From: a virus | Taxonomy: Duplodnaviria > Caudoviricetes | Length of the DNA stretch: 31,356 nucleotides | IMG/VR virus record: IMGVR_UViG_3300010366_000040 | Coordinates: 1-31,356 of that record | Strand: one strand, 5' to 3' | In this document: positions 449 to 14,034 of the stretch, one piece after another | Layout: each line of letters begins with the position of its first letter | Position numbering within the stretch: the stretch's first letter is position 1 | The notes under the pieces: generated by a model | The model's input: only the letters and a program-made list of their open reading frames with translations | Told to the model about the DNA's origin: nothing | Database searches by the model: none | Program-made: the position numbers and the translations under genes

Positions 449-649
449 ATGTCGAAACACGAACTGGACGAGTACGACAAGCGCAAGATCGAGATCGGAG
501 TCACGAGCATCCCTCGCGGCACCGAACCCGCGATCGAGCGCTGCGCCCACATGCTCCGCGAGTCCATGCGCACCACGAGCAGGACAGCGAGCAAGGGCTA
601 CCTCGGAGCAGCGAAGTGGTTCGCCTGGGCCGCCCAAAAGGAGAAGTGA
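449..649 (+). CDS. small hypothetical phage protein (66 aa)
   Basis: ATG start with purine-rich AGAAGGG upstream; GC3-rich codons; its TGA overlaps the next ATG (TGATG coupling). Confidence 0.65.
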   Translation: MSKHELDEYDKRKIEIGVTSIPRGTEPAIERCAHMLRESMRTTSRTASKGYLGAAKWFAWAAQKEK

Positions 650-1389: not shown

Positions 1390-1524
1390 GGGCGTAGGAC
1401 GGCAGGCCGAGAGGACGTGGAGTCGGTGGGACGGACAGAAAGGAGGCGAGGCTCGGTGGGCGGGCCGAAGGCTGGGGGCGATGGTCTGGCGGAAGGGCGG
1501 CTGGCGGGCTGGCGGGGTGGCGTT

Positions 1525-1558
1525 CGACGCTCGGGGCTCGAAAGGGCCCCGGGCGTGG
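1525..1558 (+). repeat. hairpin repeat copy 1 (ACGCTCGGGGCTC-GAAA-GGGCCCCGGGCGT)
   Basis: 13-bp stem (2 G-U) with a GAAA tetraloop; arms shared with the copy at 1764-1795. Confidence 0.85.
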
Positions 1559-1763
1559 GACGGCTCGACGGGCCGTTGGCCGAACGGAGGGTTTGGAACC
1601 GAGGACGGAACGATAGAGCGGCTGGTGGGCGGCTGGTGGGGTTGGCGGCAGGACGGCAGGTTGCGCTGGGAGGGGAGTCGGCGGGTGGGGTGGACGGGGC
1701 CTTTGGAAGGGTGGTCGGCGGGTCGGACTGCTGGAAGGTTTCCTGCTCGGCATGGCAGGAGCA

Positions 1764-1795
1764 CGACGCTCGGGGCAGCAGTGCCCCGGGCGTGG
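1764..1795 (+). repeat. hairpin repeat copy 2 (ACGCTCGGGGCA-GCAG-TGCCCCGGGCGT)
   Basis: Same CGACGCTCGGGGC / GCCCCGGGCGTGG arms as copy 1, with a different apex that still pairs; 239 nt downstream of copy 1. Confidence 0.85.
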
Positions 1796-2062
1796 CGCTC
1801 TGGCGAGGTTGGTACGAAGGGCGGTCAGAGGGCTCGGTGGGTGGAGTGGGTGGACGGGCTGGGAGGCCGGGCGGCTCGACGGCTGGGCTCCATGGGCGAA
1901 CGGCAGGCCGAGAGGAATGGAGGACGGCGGGCTGGCTGGTGGGCCGGGCCCCAGGGAGGAAGGCGGGCTGGATGGTGGCGTGGGAGGTAACGAGGATGGG
2001 GGCAAGGGCGGCAAAGCCGGATGGGACAACGGTCGGGAGGATCGGTGGCGGGGTGGCTGGGA

Positions 2063-2320
2063 GTGAGTGAGCAGCTCGGTGCGGCGCTGGTCGAGCTGCT
2101 CACTCCGCTCGTGCGCGGACTCGTCGTCGACGAGGTCGAACGCCAGCAGGTCGCGCAGCGCTGGCTGCCGGTGAGCGAAGCGGCCCGCCGCTACGACATG
2201 AGCGAGAACACGATCCGCAGGCGAGTGGCCCGCGGAACGATGCCCGGGGTCAAAGTCGAGGGCCGCGTGTTCGTCGACGCGGTCGCCTGGGAGCGGGAAC
2301 TGGAGGAGCGGCTACAATGA
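2063..2320 (+). CDS. xis: excisionase-like / MerR-type HTH DNA-binding protein
   Basis: WLPVSEAARRYDMSENTIRRRVARGTMPGVKVEGRVFV is a typical Xis/HTH_17 pattern; lies directly upstream of the integrase. GTG start at 2063 is inferred. Confidence 0.75.
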   Translation: MSEQLGAALVELLTPLVRGLVVDEVERQQVAQRWLPVSEAARRYDMSENTIRRRVARGTMPGVKVEGRVFVDAVAWERELEERLQ

Positions 2321-3735
2321 CCTTTCACTCAAATGAGAGAAATGTGCCCCGGCGGTCGGCAAACCCCGGGGCGCGGACACGAGAAAGGATGGTTCCCATG
2401 TCAGCAGTAGCTTACGACAGGCCGCGCGGCCGGATCCCGGGGAAGCCCAGGCTCGGCTACGTCAAGCAGGCCGACGGCTCGATCCACTACACGTTCACCA
2501 CCAAGAAGCGCGGCGAGACGCGGCAGGAGACGTGGAAGGTCGACGAGGCCGAGGCGTTCCGCCTCTACGACGTCGCGGTCGGAAAGGACGCCGACGGCGA
2601 GATCGTCGTGGCGAAGGGCTCGATCACGCTCGCCGACGTGATCAGCCTCCATCTCACCCAGACCGAGGCGAAGGTCGGCAAGACCCGCACCGACGGCACC
2701 TACGTCAAGGAGGAGCTGCACTGCCGCCGCTACATCGAGCCGTTCTTCCGCGGCACGACACGGTTCGCCTCGATCGGCGAGGAGGACATCGAGGACTTCC
2801 TCCAGTACCTGCGCTTCGACAAGGAGCTGTCGCACTGGTACGTCCACAAGATCCTGCAGACCGTGAAGAACCTGTACAAGGTGGCGCTGCGGAAGCAGTG
2901 GATCAACCGCAACCCCGTCCCGCTGGTCGACAAGGACTGGGTGCCGCCGAGGGAGCCCCTGCGCGAGGCGACGATCGTGACCCCGTCCGGGTTCGCGAGG
3001 ATGATCGCGCACGTCAACCCGCTGTACCTGAACGCGCTGATCGTGCTCGCCTGCACCGGCCTGCGGATCAGCGAGCTGTGCGGGCTGCGCTGGGAGTTCG
3101 TCGACCTGGAGCTGAAGCGGCTCTACGTCGAAGAGCAGCTCGCCTACCGGCGGGTGAAGGACGAGAACGGGTTCGTGCTCCGGCGCGGCGACGGCAAGGC
3201 GGTGCGCGAGCGCTACCAGGATCAGCCGAAGGGTGCTCGCGGCCGGGGCAGGACGCGCTCGCGGCGGCCGGTGCGTCTGCTCCCGCTCGCGCTCGCGGCG
3301 CTGGAGCGGCAGCTCTTCATCGAGCAGCAGAAGGGCTTCGGCCGCCCGCAGGACTTCGTCTTCACGACGAGCGACGGGTTCCGCAAGGCCGGGCTGAAGG
3401 CCGCCTCCGGGATCTTCTCGGGCAAGGCGTTCGACCAGCACAGCCTGCGCACGCGCGGGGTCACGGCGGCGGGCAAGCTGGCCGGGCTCGGCCACGTCCT
3501 GCCGCACGATCTGCGGCACACGACGGCGAGCATGCTGCACAAGGCGGGGATCTCCGACGCGACCGCGGCGCGCATGCTCGGCCACACCACCACCCAGTAC
3601 CGCGACACCTACGTTCACGTCGTCGACCTCGACGCGGAGTTCGAGGCGCTCGACGCGGCGCTGACCGGGCTCGGGTTCGGCGTCGACCTCAACGCCACGG
3701 TCGAGGAGATCGAGGACGAGGAGGTGGCCGCGTGA
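2317..3735 (+). CDS. int: tyrosine integrase
   Basis: Catalytic motifs TGLRISELCGLRW, HDLRHT, LGH and DTYVH, with a SAM-like core-binding region. The true start may be ATG 2398 (SD AAAGGA at 2384-2389). Confidence 0.95.
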   Translation: MTFHSNERNVPRRSANPGARTRERMVPMSAVAYDRPRGRIPGKPRLGYVKQADGSIHYTFTTKKRGETRQETWKVDEAEAFRLYDVAVGKDADGEIVVAKGSITLADVISLHLTQTEAKVGKTRTDGTYVKEELHCRRYIEPFFRGTTRFASIGEEDIEDFLQYLRFDKELSHWYVHKILQTVKNLYKVALRKQWINRNPVPLVDKDWVPPREPLREATIVTPSGFARMIAHVNPLYLNALIVLACTGLRISELCGLRWEFVDLELKRLYVEEQLAYRRVKDENGFVLRRGDGKAVRERYQDQPKGARGRGRTRSRRPVRLLPLALAALERQLFIEQQKGFGRPQDFVFTTSDGFRKAGLKAASGIFSGKAFDQHSLRTRGVTAAGKLAGLGHVLPHDLRHTTASMLHKAGISDATAARMLGHTTTQYRDTYVHVVDLDAEFEALDAALTGLGFGVDLNATVEEIEDEEVAA

Positions 3736-5552: not shown

Positions 5553-6614
5553 TCAGAGCCCGACGTGGAGATGGTTGTAGTGGTTGCCGCCGATCATCGA
5601 GTTGAAGATGATCTGCTTCCCGTTGATGTTGAACAGGCCGCCCGTCTGACGCCGGGCCACCTTCGGATCCATCCCCGCCGTGATCAGCGCCGCCCGGCCC
5701 AGGTTGGTGAGCGCGGCCCCGCTCGCGGGGATGTCGGCAGCGTCCCCCGTCCAGTGCCGCGACTGCCGGTGGGTGCCGACGACGAACTGGTTGTGGTTCG
5801 TCCCTGTCCCGATCTCCAACGCCCTGCCGTACGTCCCGGCGATCTGGCGGACGAAGTCGACGACGGCCGGGTGGATCGCGACCCCAGCGCGGTTGGCGTT
5901 CGGCGAGATCGTGACCTTGCCCATTCCCGACAGCGGGACGAACGGCTTGCTGACCGGGGGGACGGTGGGGACGGGCGAAGCTGCGCGAGGGCCGCCTGAG
6001 GCGGGCAGACTCGGACGACCCTCGTTCGCGATCATCGCGTCGACCAGGTTCCTGACCTGGACGGTCGGGTCGAGCCCGACGTTGCGCATGATCACGTCGT
6101 CGAACGACGGCATCTTGAGCGGCTGCGCGCGCGGCACCGCCGAAGCGAGCGTCCGCACCGCCGGAGCTGGAGCTGCTGCTGCTGTGGCCGTGACCGAGCG
6201 CCGCGAGCTGACGCCCGGATCGCCGCCGAGATCGCGCAGGAAGCCGCTCACGTTCTGCACCCAGTTCGAGTTCAGCCCGCCCGGATCGTTCGACGCGCCC
6301 TCCGGGGCCCACTTCTGCCCGATCGAGGCGACCGTGTTGCGGCCCTCGTTCAGGTAGCCGGAGCGCAGGCCCTGGGTGATCGTCGAGATCGCGTCCTCCC
6401 ACGAGCCGAAGCTCTTGCCGGGCCCCCAGCCCCAGGCGTTGTGTGCGCCGAGAGTGTGCTGGCCGAAGCCCGACTCCGCGCCGGAGATCGCGACCGGCAG
6501 CAGCGGGTCGACGCCGTACTTCTGCCCGGCGGCGACGAACACGTTGCCGAGCCCGGCGAGCGGGCTCGCCCGGCCGCTCAGGAACTTGTCGATGAGCGCG
6601 GCCTGGTCAGCCAC
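5553..6614 (-). CDS. virion-associated cell-wall hydrolase: glucosaminidase/lysozyme-like domain plus M15-like Zn peptidase
   Basis: N-terminal YGVDPLLPVAISGAESGFG...HNAWGWG...KWAP; C-terminal SRHWTGDAADI...HYNHLHVG (H-x6-D...HxH). Confidence 0.8.
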   Translation of the reverse strand: MADQAALIDKFLSGRASPLAGLGNVFVAAGQKYGVDPLLPVAISGAESGFGQHTLGAHNAWGWGPGKSFGSWEDAISTITQGLRSGYLNEGRNTVASIGQKWAPEGASNDPGGLNSNWVQNVSGFLRDLGGDPGVSSRRSVTATAAAAPAPAVRTLASAVPRAQPLKMPSFDDVIMRNVGLDPTVQVRNLVDAMIANEGRPSLPASGGPRAASPVPTVPPVSKPFVPLSGMGKVTISPNANRAGVAIHPAVVDFVRQIAGTYGRALEIGTGTNHNQFVVGTHRQSRHWTGDAADIPASGAALTNLGRAALITAGMDPKVARRQTGGLFNINGKQIIFNSMIGGNHYNHLHVGL

Positions 6615-9600
6615 TGGAGGCGTAGTCCTTCTTGGCCTTGGAGACGGCCTTCCGGTAGCTCACGAGCGGGGCGAGGATGCCGGGCACGCCGTACTGCGTG
6701 TTGCCGTACAGGAACGCGTCGACGTACAGGCCCATCGAGGTGTCGGGCAGCGTCGAGGGCTGGGGGATCGAAGCGCCTGGAAGGTAGCGCCGGTAGAGCG
6801 CGTACACCACCTCGGCGCGCTGACGGTCGGTGAGCGTCGGCTTGGTCTGGCCCTCCTTCTTCGGGTACCAGCCCGTGCTTCCGGCGATGTCCTTCTCCTT
6901 CAGCGCCACCAGGTCTTCGTAGGCCTGCTGAACGAACAGCGCGTGGCGCACGCTCTGCGGGATCTGGCTGGTCTGAACCCCGGCGCGCTTGGCCGTCGCG
7001 GCGATCTTGTCCTGCGTCTTCTGGGCCGTGGTCTTCTGGTTCTGCTGGGTCTGGAAGGCGTGCAGGCGGACGAGGCTGACGTCCTGGGGCAGGAAGCGGG
7101 TGAACTTGCGGGTGGTGACGTCGAGCGGGCCGCGGTCGGTGTAGACCTTCGAGCGCTTCGACGGGTCGAGGAGCTGGCGGCCGTACTGGCCGAACGGGAC
7201 GAAGTTGAGCGCGTTGTCGATGAGCGCGTCCCGGCCGCCAGTCGCCTGCCCGTAGTCGTTCATGCCCGTGGCGAGCTGGATGCCTCCGGCGATGAACGGC
7301 TGCAAGAAGTCGGACAGCTTCGTGCCCGCGGCCAGGTTGTGGTTCTGGGCGACCGACTGGATGTTCGAGATCAGCGTGTCGATCGTCGTCGCGGCCTGCG
7401 ACGTCGGGGAGAACTGCATCACGTTCATCACCCGGGCGAGCCCGCCCTTGGCCTCGCCGAGCGGGATCAGGTCGCGGTAGTTGAGCGGAACGTCGCCCAT
7501 GATCGCCTTGCGGCGCTGCTCCTCCGCGTAGCCGAGCTGCGCCGAGATCCCCGTCGCGAGCGGGTACTCGCGCGCGTAGTAGAACGGCCACGCCGTCGCG
7601 CCGCGGATCCACGGCCAGATGAACAGGAAGCGGGTCAGGTGCAGCCGCTCCCAGTCGGCGAGGCGGTCGAAGTTGACCATGATCTCGGTGGCGCGGTTGC
7701 CGATGATCTCGCGGTTGCGCAGGTCGCGCGGCGTCTCGCCGCGCAGCAGCGCCTTCTGCTTCTCGGCGGTGTCGTAGCCCATCCGCTTGGCCTCGTAGAT
7801 CCAGGCGGCGATGCGCGGCATCTTGTCCGGGGCCGCCGTGATCCGGCGCAGCGCCGCCTCCTCCTTCGAGCGGAAATAGTGGCTGAGCTGCCCGCCCCGG
7901 CCGTACTGGGCGGCGGCGAGCGCGGGCAGCTCGCCCGTCTCGACCGCGACCAGGGTCGCCAGGTCGGAGTCGGAGTGCATCATCTTCGCCGCCTTGAGCA
8001 GGTTCTGGGCCGCGAGCGGGCCCTGCTGGGCGAGCAGGAAGAAGCTGTTGCCGATGAAATTGATGGGGATATAGCTGGGATTGGTGTAAATCATGCTCCA
8101 GCGCGCGATCGTGTTGGTGATGTCCCAGCCCTTGCCGAGGATGTTCGAGGGGCCGCGCATCTGGCGGAAGAGCTGTTGGACGTGGTTCTTGTCGACGACG
8201 TAGATGTTCAGCTTCAGCCGCGCCTCGGCGAGGGCGCGCTCCGGGTCGCCGCTCTCGCGCGCGTACGCCTCCAGCTCCTGGCGGAACTCGCCGCCGTCCT
8301 TGAACAGGTTGTCGGCGTAGTCCTTGAGCGTGGCTTCGAGCACCTCCGGGTCGCGGCCCTCCAGGGCGGTCATCACCTTCTGGACGTCGGCGGTCGAGCC
8401 GGTGGTCGCCGCCTTCAGGGAGGCGCGCTGAAGCTGCGGCAGCGGCGTCCCGTCCATGACCAAGACCATGTTGTCGGTGATGGGCTCGTCGGGCCGGAGC
8501 TTGCGCCCGACGTCCTTCAGCCGGTCGCTCAGCTCCTTCACGAACGCGAACGCCTGCGCGTTGTTCCAGGCCTCGAACACCACCTTCGGGTCGGCGTGCA
8601 GGTCGCCGTTCTGCCAGCGCAGAAGCTGGTTGCGGACGTTCAGGTTCAGGTACGACTGGTCAGGCTTGCCGACCGTCTGCCCGGTGAGCGCCTTCGCGGG
8701 ACGGTCGAAGATCCGCATCTTCTGCCCAGCGACCGAGCCGTGGTGGACATAGGTTGCGGTGCCGCGGGCGAAGTCGTCGGGGATCAGGCCCTGCTCGGCG
8801 AGAAAGTCGGCCATCAGGTCGACGCGCTGGGAGAACACCTCGTCGTAGCGGCTGCCGAAGATCGAGCGCAGGATCTCGTCGCGCCGAGCCTGGAGCTGGT
8901 TGAGCGAGCCGAGCGCGCCCTCGAAGCCGGGGTCGTCCGGGTTGGCGAGCGCGTCCTCGATCGCCATCACGCGCTGGCGCAGGCCGGTGGTGCGGTCGAC
9001 GGCCGCCTGCGTCTCCTGGGCGACGACGTCCATGAGCTGCGAGTAGGTCGCGAGCACGGCGTCCTTCTCCGCTTCCGGGGCCGAGTCGAAGTCGCCGTAC
9101 TTCTCGTCGATCGCCTTGCGCTGCCCGTCGAGCTTCTCCTGCAGGCCGACGCGGGAGCGGCGGTAGTCGCGCATCGCGCCGCGCCGCCGCAGCGCCGCCA
9201 GCTCGTTCGAGGAGTACTCCCACAAAGTGTGGGCCTGTGTCGCGCGCAGCTCGTGCGGGATCGACGTCATCATCCCCGCGACCCGAAACACGTTGTCGTC
9301 GTTGTAGGTGCCGAACAGCCGGTCGAAGACGGCGCGCACCGGCTCGGGCATCGGGCCGAGCCTGGCCTCCGCGCCGTAGATCGAGCGCATCCACGCCTTC
9401 ATGTGCGCGAACGTGTCGACCAGCTCGGGCGTGGGCCCACGGCCCTCCATGAAGTAGCGCTCAGCCATGCGAGCGAAGCGCTCGTGGTCGGCTCTGTCCC
9501 ACTCGGCGAGCGGCTTGCCGAAGAAGGCCTCGACGTCGGCCCACTCCTTCGGGTACGCGCGGCTGATCTCGTTGACGCCGTGGCCGTACAGCTCGTGCAG

Positions 9601-12600
9601 CAGCGTCGAGACGTCGGCCTGCTTGGTGAGGTAGAGGATGCGCCCGCCCTCGGGCGTGTTCAGGAACTGAACCGCGCCGAGCAGATCGCCCTTGCGGCTC
9701 TGGGCAAGCCGCTCGACGGGCGGGGGCCCGCGCGGCTGCGCTACTCCTGGCTCTGCTGGGGCTCGCTCGGCGGCGAGCTGGGTGTGCCGCTCGGCGGCGG
9801 CGGCGGAGTCTGCTGTGAACTCGTCCCTGAGGGCCTGCGCCTCACTGGCGAGCCGATCAGCAAGCCCCCGGAGCCGTAGAACTTGTCCAGGTCTTCCTGC
9901 GTTGCCGGTACTAGATTCGATGGCACTGTCGTAACCCTCCGTTCCGGTTGACCAGTCGTTCTCGACGAGATCCCCGTCGCTCACATGGTACCCGCCCTTG
10001 TGGCCGGGCAGCACCTCGCCGATCGCCGCGTCGACCTGGCCCTGGAAGCTTTCGGAGTACCCCTTGCCGGGAGCGAAGTTCGGGATGTCGTCGCGCCACG
10101 GGGCCTTGCGCAGGTAAACGCCCTGCTTCCCGGCGTGGACGACGAACACGCGCTCGCCCTCGCCGACGGGGTTGAGCAGGTCGTAGAGCCGGACGGCCTC
10201 CTCGTCGGTGGCCGCGCGTCCGAGGTCGACGAACACCGTCTCGGCGTGCCCGCGCGTGGTATGCACGAACGGCCGGGCCCAGGCGACGGCGTCCTGCAGT
10301 GTCGCCCGTCCGATCGCCGCCGAGACGTAGGTGAACATGGCGCGGTCGGTCGGTGAGACGGTGTACTTGATGCCCTTGGCCTGGGCGGCGACGGTGCGCA
10401 CAACGGCACCGGACGCGGCTGCGCGCTCGTACATGCCGGGCCCCAGCTCGGAGCCGAGGTGGAGAACCCCGGCGTCGGTGAGGAAGTTGTCGACGAGGTG
10501 AGTGTTGGCGACGAGGAACGCCTGCCGCGTCTCGGGATCCCAGCTCTTGTACAGGTCGCCGAACGCGCCCGCGAACGTCTCGCCCGGCGCGACCTCGTAA
10601 TTGATCAGACCGTGGTGGCGGCTCATCGCCTGGGCGAAATCGACGTTGGCGCTGACGTCGTCGGAGATGTCCTTGATCGCCGTCCAGATCGCCGCCTGAA
10701 CCTGCTTCGGCTTCCAGCGCTTCTCCTTGGCGAGCTGCTCTACGACCGACTCGATCACGTCGTAGCGGCCCTCGGTGACACCCTTGCGCAGGTAGCCGAA
10801 CACTCGGGCCATCCACATGTCGGCGGTGACCGAGCCTAGGGTTTTCTGGCCCTTGTAGATCCGGCCCTCCTTCAGGGCCCGAGCCTGCTCCTCCTTGCTA
10901 AGGGTGCGCTCGCGTTTCCAGCGCGGCCTGTCGATGTCCTCCAGGAAATTGCGGTAGAAGTTGTTGGTCTTGCGGCCCTCCCAATCCTTGGTGCCGTTGA
11001 GGGCGTTGGTGGCCGCCTCGATCTGCCAGTCCTGGCCGTTCGTGATCTCGTGGTCGGTGAGCCAGGCGTTGTAGGCCTTGATCGCCTCGCCGAGGTTCGG
11101 GATGACCGCCTTCTGCGGTGAGTAGATCGCGACGAGCTGGGCGATCTTGGCCGCCGTTTCCTTGTCGCCGTTCGCCATCCGCAGGATCGACTTGGCCGAG
11201 TTCTCGTACCAGTACCGGCCCGCCTTGCCCCGGTTCATCAGCTCGGTCAGGAGGGCCATGAGCCGCTCCATGTCCTGCGGCGTCTTGCCGTGCAGGGGGA
11301 GCGCGCCCGAGCGGCCCTTGTACGCGTTCACGAGCCGGGTCGCGAGCGTGCGTCGTGCCGGGCTCTCCGGAACCATCCCCTTGGAGGCCTGTGAGCTGTT
11401 CCAGACGCGGGAGTACAGCTCGTCCTCGATCGCCTTGTCGAGCTTCGCCTTCGCCTCGACGCGCGGCTTCGACACCTCGTCGAGATGCTCTCTGGCGGCG
11501 GCGCGCTCGGGATGGTGCGGATCCTTGTGCTTCTTCTTCGCCGCCTCGTGCGCCTTCTTCGCGGCGTTGACCTCGTCCTTCGTTTCGGCCTTGACCTGCT
11601 CGTAGTTGGCCTCCTCGGTTTCCAGCTTGTGGACGAGATCGCCGTGCTCCTTGTTGAACACGAGCCGCCCGGATACCTCGGAGCGTGGGATCTCGCCCTT
11701 CGGGTCGAGCCGGTCGGCGTTGATCGCCGGGGCCTTCCTCGTCTGGGTCAGCGCCTCCTCGGGCACGAGGCCGTGCTCGTAGTGCTCCAGCAGATGGACG
11801 CTGTGGAGGTTGAACCCGTCGGCGGCGGTGTAGTACTCGCCGGGATCCTGGCCCGGATGCTCCTTCGCCCACTGCCGCGCGGCCGTGTCGAAGATGCCCA
11901 TCAGCGCCTGGTGCTGCTCTGGCGTCACGTTCGGGAGCTGCTGGATGTGGTCGCTCAGCTCGGTGCGGCGCGGGGACTCGACCGCGGGCTGCTCGATCGT
12001 GAGGTCGTCGAGCTGCGCCTTGAGCGCGTTCCGCTCGCGCACAAGGTGGTTGATGTCGTCGCGCGCCGCACCGATCCGGCGTCCGCGTGTCTCCGCGTCG
12101 AGCGTGTCATCGGCCTCGGTGTCGCGGAGGTACTGGCGGATCTGGCGGAGATGATCCTCGGCGGCGAGGATCGAGTAGTTGAGACGGCCCTGCTCGTGGT
12201 GGACGTCGGCGATGCGGGTGAGCCAGCGGTCGCGCCCGGCCTTCTCGACCTGGGCCCGGAACTTCTTCACCTCGTTCATGAGCTGGCGCTCGCGCGGGGT
12301 CAGCCGCCGGTCGCGCATCACCGGCCGCCCGGCGAGCATCCGCTCGGTGTCGGCGAGCATGCCGCGGAGCCAGACCTCCTCGGGCACGTTCGCGGGCTTC
12401 TGCAGGGTGTGGAACAGCCGCTCGCCGCGTGAGGGATCCTCGCCGACGAAGTCCTTGACCTGGTGCCACAGCACCGCGCCCTGAGCGGCCATGCGGCGAA
12501 CGTTGCGCTTCATCTGGTTCTTCTCCGCCCGCAGCCCGCGCCGGGTCGGTGTCGTCCACACGCTCGCGGCGCGCTTGTCGCCGACGGCCCGTTCCAGGCC

Positions 12601-14034
12601 GCGGGTAGCGACGTCGTAGCCGCGCACGAACCCGCGGGTCAGCGGGTGCTTCGGCTCGTCGAGGACTTGCGGGCGCGGCGTGACGTGCTCGCCGCGGATC
12701 GTGACCGTGCGCGGCGTGTGTGTAGCCTCGACGTGCGGGAACTCGCCGAGCCGGGTCGGGTCGCGCGAGAGCGCCCGAGCCTCCCGCCACGTCGCCCCGG
12801 CCGCCATGAAGCGGGCCTCGCTGACCAGCCTGGCCCCGGGCGCGACGACGGTGAGCGCGTCGACGAGGTGGATCAGCGGCTCGTTGTAGCCGTTCATGAC
12901 GGCCTGCTTGAAGCTGACGTCGGGCCCGTACTTGCTGGTGATGTCGTCCATGACCTGCTTGATCACCTGGTTGACGAACGCCGCCCGCTGGTTGTCCTTC
13001 AGATTCGGGTTCAGGAGCAGGTTCGGGAGCGACACGCCCAGGCCGACCGCGAGCGCGCCCTGGCCGCGGATCATGTCGACCATCTCGTTCGCCGCCCTGA
13101 TCGGGTGGGCCACGATCCCCGCCGTCGCGAGCGGCACGCCAGCTCCGACCTTCGCGAGCCCCTCGCCGACGGTCAGCGCCTGCTGCCCCGTAGGCAGCGG
13201 GATCACGCTGGCCTGCAGCCGCGTCTGCGTCTCGTCCGGCGCGGGGCCGCCCCAGCGGCCTCCGCTGCGCGCGCGGATGGCGTCGAGGGCCTTCTTGGTT
13301 TCGATCGCGCCGCCCATCACGAACTTCGCCCCGAGCCCCGCCAGGGCCCCACCGGCCTGCTCGCCCGTCCGGGCAGCCGCCCCGGCCATCCCTCCGAGCG
13401 TCCAGTCCCTGTTGACCCTGTCAACCCAGTCGCGGTAGTTCTCGAACGAACGCACCGGATGCTCGACAACCGGGGCGGCCTCCTTGCCGATCCCGGTGAT
13501 GGCACGCACCTCGGGCGGGACAGCGGCGTGCAGAGCCCTGTCCCACAGGCTCGGCCTCGGCGGCGGCGGGGCCGCAGCAGCGGCCCGACGCTGCGCGTCG
13601 GCCGCGAGCATCTGCTTCTTCTTCGCCGGATCCATCGTGGTCGCGAGAACATGGCGGGCAGCCGGGCTGGCGTAGCTCGCGACGGCGACGTCGTAGCGGT
13701 CGTTGATCGCCTTCGACGACGGCACCGGGATCATCGGCTGGCCGCGCCGATAAGGCGCAAACGCCGGGCTCGGCGGCGGCCTGTTGCCGGGCACCTTCAG
13801 CTCGGCGGGGAACAGGCGGCTCTCGGCGTCCTGGATCGTCGCCCACTTCTGGATCTGGCTCGGGCCACGCTGACGCCCGCCCCCCTTCGGGGGCGCGGGA
13901 ACGTCGGCGGCCTTCGAGGCGGCCCGGGCCCGTCGGGCAACGGGCTCTGCCCTCTTGAGCGTGGCCTTGACTCCGGAGCTGACGTCGGCAGCCGGAGCGA
14001 ACGCGGCGAAGAGGCCTTTGCGCGGTCTAGGCAC
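6607..14034 (-). CDS. giant internal virion / ejection (polyvalent) protein, 2475 aa
   Basis: Long ORF with GC3-rich codons, placed after nozzle and ejection genes. Contains an HhH-glycosylase-like region, a zincin-like STLLHELYGH...HERFAR region and an LPD-like helical C-terminus. Confidence 0.85.
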   Translation of the reverse strand: MPRPRKGLFAAFAPAADVSSGVKATLKRAEPVARRARAASKAADVPAPPKGGGRQRGPSQIQKWATIQDAESRLFPAELKVPGNRPPPSPAFAPYRRGQPMIPVPSSKAINDRYDVAVASYASPAARHVLATTMDPAKKKQMLAADAQRRAAAAAPPPPRPSLWDRALHAAVPPEVRAITGIGKEAAPVVEHPVRSFENYRDWVDRVNRDWTLGGMAGAAARTGEQAGGALAGLGAKFVMGGAIETKKALDAIRARSGGRWGGPAPDETQTRLQASVIPLPTGQQALTVGEGLAKVGAGVPLATAGIVAHPIRAANEMVDMIRGQGALAVGLGVSLPNLLLNPNLKDNQRAAFVNQVIKQVMDDITSKYGPDVSFKQAVMNGYNEPLIHLVDALTVVAPGARLVSEARFMAAGATWREARALSRDPTRLGEFPHVEATHTPRTVTIRGEHVTPRPQVLDEPKHPLTRGFVRGYDVATRGLERAVGDKRAASVWTTPTRRGLRAEKNQMKRNVRRMAAQGAVLWHQVKDFVGEDPSRGERLFHTLQKPANVPEEVWLRGMLADTERMLAGRPVMRDRRLTPRERQLMNEVKKFRAQVEKAGRDRWLTRIADVHHEQGRLNYSILAAEDHLRQIRQYLRDTEADDTLDAETRGRRIGAARDDINHLVRERNALKAQLDDLTIEQPAVESPRRTELSDHIQQLPNVTPEQHQALMGIFDTAARQWAKEHPGQDPGEYYTAADGFNLHSVHLLEHYEHGLVPEEALTQTRKAPAINADRLDPKGEIPRSEVSGRLVFNKEHGDLVHKLETEEANYEQVKAETKDEVNAAKKAHEAAKKKHKDPHHPERAAAREHLDEVSKPRVEAKAKLDKAIEDELYSRVWNSSQASKGMVPESPARRTLATRLVNAYKGRSGALPLHGKTPQDMERLMALLTELMNRGKAGRYWYENSAKSILRMANGDKETAAKIAQLVAIYSPQKAVIPNLGEAIKAYNAWLTDHEITNGQDWQIEAATNALNGTKDWEGRKTNNFYRNFLEDIDRPRWKRERTLSKEEQARALKEGRIYKGQKTLGSVTADMWMARVFGYLRKGVTEGRYDVIESVVEQLAKEKRWKPKQVQAAIWTAIKDISDDVSANVDFAQAMSRHHGLINYEVAPGETFAGAFGDLYKSWDPETRQAFLVANTHLVDNFLTDAGVLHLGSELGPGMYERAAASGAVVRTVAAQAKGIKYTVSPTDRAMFTYVSAAIGRATLQDAVAWARPFVHTTRGHAETVFVDLGRAATDEEAVRLYDLLNPVGEGERVFVVHAGKQGVYLRKAPWRDDIPNFAPGKGYSESFQGQVDAAIGEVLPGHKGGYHVSDGDLVENDWSTGTEGYDSAIESSTGNAGRPGQVLRLRGLADRLASEAQALRDEFTADSAAAAERHTQLAAERAPAEPGVAQPRGPPPVERLAQSRKGDLLGAVQFLNTPEGGRILYLTKQADVSTLLHELYGHGVNEISRAYPKEWADVEAFFGKPLAEWDRADHERFARMAERYFMEGRGPTPELVDTFAHMKAWMRSIYGAEARLGPMPEPVRAVFDRLFGTYNDDNVFRVAGMMTSIPHELRATQAHTLWEYSSNELAALRRRGAMRDYRRSRVGLQEKLDGQRKAIDEKYGDFDSAPEAEKDAVLATYSQLMDVVAQETQAAVDRTTGLRQRVMAIEDALANPDDPGFEGALGSLNQLQARRDEILRSIFGSRYDEVFSQRVDLMADFLAEQGLIPDDFARGTATYVHHGSVAGQKMRIFDRPAKALTGQTVGKPDQSYLNLNVRNQLLRWQNGDLHADPKVVFEAWNNAQAFAFVKELSDRLKDVGRKLRPDEPITDNMVLVMDGTPLPQLQRASLKAATTGSTADVQKVMTALEGRDPEVLEATLKDYADNLFKDGGEFRQELEAYARESGDPERALAEARLKLNIYVVDKNHVQQLFRQMRGPSNILGKGWDITNTIARWSMIYTNPSYIPINFIGNSFFLLAQQGPLAAQNLLKAAKMMHSDSDLATLVAVETGELPALAAAQYGRGGQLSHYFRSKEEAALRRITAAPDKMPRIAAWIYEAKRMGYDTAEKQKALLRGETPRDLRNREIIGNRATEIMVNFDRLADWERLHLTRFLFIWPWIRGATAWPFYYAREYPLATGISAQLGYAEEQRRKAIMGDVPLNYRDLIPLGEAKGGLARVMNVMQFSPTSQAATTIDTLISNIQSVAQNHNLAAGTKLSDFLQPFIAGGIQLATGMNDYGQATGGRDALIDNALNFVPFGQYGRQLLDPSKRSKVYTDRGPLDVTTRKFTRFLPQDVSLVRLHAFQTQQNQKTTAQKTQDKIAATAKRAGVQTSQIPQSVRHALFVQQAYEDLVALKEKDIAGSTGWYPKKEGQTKPTLTDRQRAEVVYALYRRYLPGASIPQPSTLPDTSMGLYVDAFLYGNTQYGVPGILAPLVSYRKAVSKAKKDYASSG
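9741..9926 (-). CDS. putative nested out-of-frame gene (61 aa) inside the giant ORF
   Basis: SD GGAGG 9 nt before GTG; the GC3 bias locally switches from the host frame to this frame. Confidence 0.5.
   Translation of the reverse strand: MPSNLVPATQEDLDKFYGSGGLLIGSPVRRRPSGTSSQQTPPPPPSGTPSSPPSEPQQSQE

Follow-up and report, generated by a model that had tools for sequence, protein, structure and literature searches.

The repeat region that fills the gap between an unannotated 246-aa gene (649-1389) and a helix-turn-helix (HTH) gene (2063-2320) in a 31-kb phage fragment is very probably the four-base array that supplies guide RNAs to a variant of VIPR. Each protein subunit would hold GG in place of GGY, and the NN dinucleotides would be read with two bases on and one skipped. 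The whole stretch of DNA analysed (31,356 nt, hereafter the window) has approximately 68% G+C and carries SU10-type capsid and portal genes. This is a new, tetranucleotide variant of VIPR and not one of the published types, since its protein is, by homology and model, a Vipr and its predicted working is VIPR-like, but the unit is not YNNGG or any related pentanucleotide consensus.

Features of the window around the Vipr gene and the four-base array
Feature	Positions	Strand	Basis or remark
ORF, 66 aa, abutting vipr	449..649	+	no family match
Vipr-family RAMP protein gene, 246 aa	649..1389	+	homology, residue alignment, model
Repeat tract 1, about 32 GG-NN units	1393..1524	+	period analysis, unit parsing
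Predicted guide, 12 units; NN, taken as codon positions 1-2, agree with the helix-turn-helix of excisionases from related phages	1475..1522	+	profile
Hairpin 1, predicted 3' tail of tract 1	1520..1563	+	-37.8 kcal/mol, z -6.4
Repeat tract 2, about 50 units	1557..1762	+	period analysis, unit parsing
Hairpin 2, predicted 3' tail of tract 2	1758..1801	+	-36.2 kcal/mol, z -6.0
Repeat tract 3, about 65 units	1797..2062	+	period analysis, unit parsing
6 units shared with the L166 array	1906..1929	+	NN comparison: NN 12/12, scaffold 8/12
10 units shared with the L166 array	1954..1993	+	NN comparison: NN 18/20, scaffold 13/20
Hairpin 3, predicted to end tract 3; overlaps the 5' end of the excisionase ORF	2061..2110	+	-33.9 kcal/mol, z -3.2
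Excisionase-type HTH gene, neighbour	2063..2320	+	annotation
Tyrosine integrase gene, neighbour	2398..3735	+	annotation

The product of 649-1389 is identified as a Vipr by sequence profile, predicted fold and kinship to a phage protein with a five-base array. A search of 1.84 billion representative sequences gave 322 relatives at E values up to 0.001, the best 150 of which were listed, and a profile of 88 homologs led by the window protein matches SUSP1 Vipr at E 2.5e-19; a direct profile of 12 sequences reached only E 0.18. Similarly, the protein model built on the 88-homolog alignment (pLDDT 89.6) matches Csm3/Cas7-type RAMPs with a best E of 1.3e-7, while an earlier model from 12 sequences (pLDDT 60) gave weak structural matches only. 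The closest match among annotated phages is a protein of phage DSL-LC04 (30% identity), with a classic five-base array upstream, and the window protein also belongs to PHROG 4652 together with a phage protein having a classic 5-nt array. In its own record, the DSL-LC04 Vipr (L001, 1432-2049) is labelled as a helix-turn-helix regulator. The window protein is thus assigned as a stand-alone Vipr-family RAMP with a thumb and a G-loop.

According to the available part of the SUSP1 structural report (10.64898/2026.04.26.720927), D177 and H17 of SUSP1 Vipr read G1, R138 and W178 hold G2, and the pocket for the third scaffold base, Y3, is formed by R179 with E71 and M72. By alignment, through which these residue roles are transferred, the window protein keeps D177 (as D224) and R138 (as R183), and five other positions are changed: R179 to T226, W178 to N225, H17 to S69, E71 to T111 and M72 to Q112. 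Its G-loop is one residue longer than that of SUSP1 and is without the aromatic residue and the arginine (W178 and R179).

These substitutions were placed on a tree of 124 proteins, from which 15 of the 139 aligned had been dropped for having no intact G-loop columns. The Vipr proteins of the five loci with a four-base period group together in a 20-member clade (FastTree support 0.881). An arginine at the R179 position is found in none of the 20 clade members and in 101 of the 104 proteins outside, and the D177 and thumb R138 equivalents are present in all 20. The E71 equivalent is present in only 35 of 104 proteins outside the clade, so that R179 is the only clean contrast. The distinct clade loci are the window, L004, L005, L165 and L166 (L003 is a near-identical strain of the window with the same array), and their Vipr proteins are approximately 70% (L004, L005) or 36-39% (L165, L166) identical to that of the window. 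The power of G at period 4 and period 5 is 1.41 and 0.19 in the window, 1.31 and 0.19 in L004, 1.83 and 0.20 in L005, 1.24 and 0.14 in L165, and 1.40 and 0.24 in L166. On the other hand, all five canonical loci from outside the clade (L001 and L205-L208) have period 5, with best GG fractions of 0.69-1.0 when read at period 5, compared with 0.35 at period 4. Period 4 therefore holds in 5/5 clade loci found and period 5 in 5/5 outside; the link between residue and period rests on a single inferred evolutionary event, because only five of the 20 clade members have a known array, and these come from a single group of related phages or from short contigs.

A sister protein, P0014, retains the arginine, and a longer G-loop with the arginine kept is also seen in P0020, P0021, P0024, P0036, P0043, P0045, P0057 and P0164. 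The repeat period of this group would mark where the four-base unit arose; the locus searches returned none for it. Scans with the window protein alone found no locus in viral contigs or in genome contigs, those with P0163 and with the integrase found none, and the scan with the excisionase alignment found one. Vipr is present in 3 of 35 capsid-related phage records (one of them the L005 record) and in none of five further records.

The array itself consists of adjacent tandem repeats with a constant scaffold and a variable NN. GG autocorrelation, judged against 500 dinucleotide shuffles, has maxima at lags 4, 8, 12 and 16 (z 4.2, 5.2, 4.5 and 3.8) and none at lag 5 (z -0.3), and local G power at period 3 is 0.21; the original prediction of a four-base pattern that is not a codon pattern is borne out by both measures. 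Its unit counts were also reproduced: GG stands in 24 of 32 units at 1886-2013, and in 9/10 at 1483-1522, 11/17 at 1595-1662, 8/9 at 1705-1740, 7/10 at 1807-1846 and 9/11 at 2019-2062. The best 128-nt stretch holds 23 in-phase GG, whereas no minus-strand stretch anywhere in the window has more than 11. In the 522 units of the five clade loci, positions 1 and 2 are 77% and 83% G, and positions 3 and 4 are near-uniform (1.97 and 1.99 bits), entropies that arise partly by construction because the parser assumed period 4. The scaffold is loose, with the full GG in 339 of 522 units, and the base after GG is a pyrimidine in 47%, which is no bias. Tracts are 11-73 units long over the five arrays, mostly far longer than the published 9-16.

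Slips of one or two bases had been proposed as marks of guide boundaries. Slips do occur, and almost all of them add bases (21 five-base, 4 six-base and 1 three-base units in the five arrays, with exact positions ambiguous by a few units), but a boundary role is not supported: both decoded stretches described below start inside an unbroken run, and the tract ends are marked by hairpins. The third base is a pyrimidine in 15 of the 21 five-base slip units (p 0.02), a weak hint that these may be leftover GGY-NN units.

Each tract is followed by a predicted structured 3' tail; these hairpins (1520-1563, 1758-1801 and 2061-2110), like the Vipr gene, did not figure in the original prediction. Thirteen hairpins were found over the five loci, their pair types vary, and a loop-centred comparison indicates that pairing is kept despite differing sequences. 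Hairpin 3 extends into the initial codons of the excisionase ORF, so that folding of the array RNA could affect excisionase translation. Three further observations concern the related loci. One hairpin is almost identical in L005 (4780-4823) and L166 (minus strand, 931-1490), though their Vipr proteins are 38% identical; L166 also has a 13-unit internal duplication (NN 24/26, scaffold 19/26); and L004 carries two extra hairpins at 2362-2450, between the vipr stop and the first tract, that the other loci did not show.

The idea that GG is a scaffold and that the information lies in NN is supported by the position of the array behind a Vipr gene and by the NN frequencies, which follow codon positions 1-2. 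Pooled NN from three loci (368 units) fit codon positions 1-2 in the sense direction (LLR +40, column-shuffle z 4.3), with a negative LLR for all other codon positions or strands; over the five loci, the rank correlation of NN with codon positions 1-2 is 0.72 (p 0.0015), and that with antisense positions 2-3 is 0.61. In a log-odds target search of 30 runs against approximately 0.75 Mb of related phage DNA with shuffled controls, there was one clear DNA-level match, between a run of L166 and an excisionase-type HTH gene in the related phage L172, with 28 of 34 NN bases (82%) matched at skip 1 and the skip on the wobble position. Its score of 41.2 bits compares with 22.5 and 22.8 bits at skips 0 and 3 and with a maximum of 35.0 in 400 shuffles. 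None of the 10 runs of the window exceeded the null at the DNA level in approximately 0.9 Mb searched. Neither the added loci nor reading across slips gave a new target, integrase homologs as targets gave nothing above the null, and a single-sequence peptide-level search had weak power. Several candidates were discarded: two 17/18 matches at skip 1 lie within chance expectation, and one of the two, of the first L005 run to hairpin 2 of the window, failed log-odds scoring; several runs whose likeness to integrase or HTH stretches was noted by eye stayed within the null distribution.

At the protein level, two runs fit a gene family. Against a profile of 37 excisionase homologs, the L166 run scores 26.9 bits and window 1475-1522 scores 23.5 bits, each reached in 0 of 3000 shuffles, and the next of the 60 run-orientations scores 13.1. 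As this profile was chosen after the L166 match and a resemblance seen by eye, the test was repeated over 83 family profiles, in which the same two runs were still the best (0 of 100 shuffles) and one antisense run passed marginally (18.4 against 17.8). A clear protein-family fit is seen for only 2 of 30 sense-read runs. The window segment matches the phage's own excisionase gene at 14 of 24 positions, and it ends at hairpin 1, as expected of a guide that ends at its tail. The one-base skip with the skipped base on the wobble position, as the original prediction had suggested, is the geometry of the only target-like matches found; both are to homologs, and the searches found no exact target.

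In the two shared segments, NN of the window matches that of L166 beyond chance. The top score of 24.8 was reached in 0 of 60 shuffles and the second in 1 of 60. Scaffold identity in the two shared segments is at the level of unrelated units (approximately 66%, from base frequencies), a contrast with NN that is biased because the segments were picked by NN identity. That NN is more alike than GG in both segments fits a shared target; it also goes against the earlier yardstick that NN as conserved as GG among related phages, together with no match above shuffled background, would indicate a structural role. If this reading is true, the same NN message on unlike scaffolds in distant phages would mean that guides are written independently from one target, and would offer a way into the question of their origin.

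A guide array with another geometry (a skip other than 1, pairing of three bases per unit, or steps of two units) is quite unlikely. Scaffold position 1, at only 77% G, might pair, 28 of the 30 runs have no decoded target, and per-run best-frame z-scores are similar for skips 0-3 (2.5-2.8). Against this, the likelihood ratio is positive at skip 1 only and the sole above-null DNA match occurs there, whereas no excess of matches was obtained with skips 0 and 3, and skip 2 recovers the arrays themselves. A decaying relic, that is, a former guide system that is no longer read, could account for the loose scaffold, the slips and the absence of an exact target among those searched, but it is highly unlikely: vipr is intact in all five clade loci, hairpin pairing is kept across different sequences, L003 has 7 differences from the window upstream and none in the array, and NN is common to distant loci. 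Closely spaced GG pairs on one strand can fold as a G-quadruplex, and such pairs are present here, with a GC skew of 0.41 at 1501-2000. Yet a structural G-rich element without target information (two-tier G-quadruplex-prone RNA or DNA, or a degenerate microsatellite) is extremely unlikely, as the array lies directly behind the Vipr gene in 5/5 loci, NN has near-maximal entropy and is shared while GG diverges, and one run has a codon-registered match to a real gene. Moreover, the 121 loci picked up by a generic scan for nine perfect GG-NN units (7 of the 64 parts of the viral collection) are poly-G and simple repeats, and none lies beside a Vipr gene. A low-complexity coding ORF is a practically negligible possibility, since the four stop-free frames that cross the region (including a 217-aa ORF at 1417-2070) have a codon likelihood of -0.23 to -0.57 per codon, compared with +0.40 for vipr, and the period is 4 and not 3.

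By analogy with SUSP1, the four-base guide array would work as follows. The tracts would be transcribed, and Vipr would form a filament with one subunit per unit, in which 4 nt of RNA instead of 5 correspond to 3 nt of DNA. Each subunit would flip GG, pair NN and skip one DNA base, and binding without cutting would silence the target. The NN guides are probably directed at genes of rival prophages, of the excisionase type in the two decoded cases. The array stands directly before the excisionase-integrase pair in the window, before an integrase gene in L005 and, by resemblance, before an integrase-like ORF in L166; this position and the excisionase-type predicted targets fit competition between temperate phages, and the array probably serves to keep rival prophages of the same host from excising or switching to lytic growth. 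It is moderately probable that the system represents an eighth, tetranucleotide VIPR type, in which the clade has lost the Y-binding pocket, uses 4 nt of RNA per 3-nt DNA step with a tolerant scaffold, and directs long multi-guide RNAs ending in hairpins at the excision switch of rival prophages.

Four VIPR preprints, in the portions available, describe only 5-nt units, and no four-base unit was found in the literature searched. The reported units are YNNGG, NNNGG, YNNNG and NNNNG, with a pentanucleotide across types in the legend of Fig. S17 (10.64898/2026.04.26.720920); arrays are modelled as 5-bp units (10.64898/2026.10.15.759431); and all variants are 5-mers in a survey whose 66 off-band periodic clusters are partly described, so that a period-4 cluster is possible among them (10.64898/2026.10.21.760802). 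As far as these accessible sections go, the window resembles VIPR (SUSP1 type II and the other six types; 10.64898/2026.04.26.720920, 10.64898/2026.04.26.720927) in its stand-alone phage RAMP gene, adjacent GG-scaffold/NN tracts, structured 3' tails, one-base wobble skip, predicted targets in rival mobile elements, and D177 and R138 equivalents. It differs in its 4-nt GG-NN unit, the changed W178, R179, H17, E71 and M72 equivalents, the longer G-loop, tracts of up to 73 units, the loose scaffold, simple hairpin tails and a locus without a recognised accessory gene. The non-canonical arrays GAC/NN, CAC/NN, WGT/NN and TGH/NN (10.64898/2026.10.21.760802) likewise have an altered scaffold beside a Vipr-like fold, but in the published part their letters change at period 5, whereas here the length of the scaffold changes. 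In the accessible account of SUSP1 VIPR acting against a satellite excision recombinase (10.64898/2026.10.15.759431), the excision machinery of a competitor is also targeted at non-wobble positions; there, targeting of a serine recombinase by a 5-nt guide was shown experimentally, whereas here excisionase-type HTH genes are predicted targets. Class 1 CRISPR Cas7/Csm3 filaments share the RAMP fold, but they pair 6 contiguous nt per subunit according to the available VIPR texts, and gapped pairing is predicted here.

The published structural model, in its available part, assigns to each five-base unit one Vipr subunit, which has a specific pocket for scaffold base 3. A clade that dropped both that base and the pocket residue would imply that the length of RNA bound per RAMP subunit is variable (6 nt in Cas7, 5 in Vipr and 4 here) at a constant DNA step of 3. 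If read in this way, the four-base guide code would be more compact than any described in those sources, and it would offer programmable repressors a 20% shorter guide per target base. With this natural contrast in period, the residues that set the register could be tested directly. Since published detectors model 5-nt units, they would miss four-base arrays.

The surrounding locus is a minimal phage locus. A Pfam scan of 24 window ORFs identified only phage structural, integrase and HTH genes and no other cas genes, and no CRISPR-like array was found among the tandem repeats of the window. A class 1 CRISPR-Cas identity was rejected, there being neither direct repeats with spacers nor several cas genes. 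In a check for an accessory vap gene, the ORF at 449-649 had no family match and the downstream HTH gene was part of the excisionase-integrase pair. No sigma-70 promoter consensus was found, and no RNA dataset was listed among the sequencing runs, of which a second covers the flanks only. Among genomes, the capsid protein has a single match, on a 48.7-kb Binatus MAG contig that may itself be a binned phage; Vipr occurs in 2 of 151 genomes sampled from the phylum of this MAG, both with 5-nt arrays. Among the virion genes, a 2475-aa ORF lies on the minus strand at 6607-14034, and DUF7178 is its only match. Upstream of vipr (273-325), a 13-base invariant motif is followed after 14-48 bases by a 9-base invariant motif able to pair with it. 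The motif pair has no Rfam match, as is the case for the whole of 1-2450. It occurs upstream of vipr in 4 of the 5 loci and also in L169 and L195, two related phage records without Vipr, and is possibly a regulatory RNA or site of the phage family.
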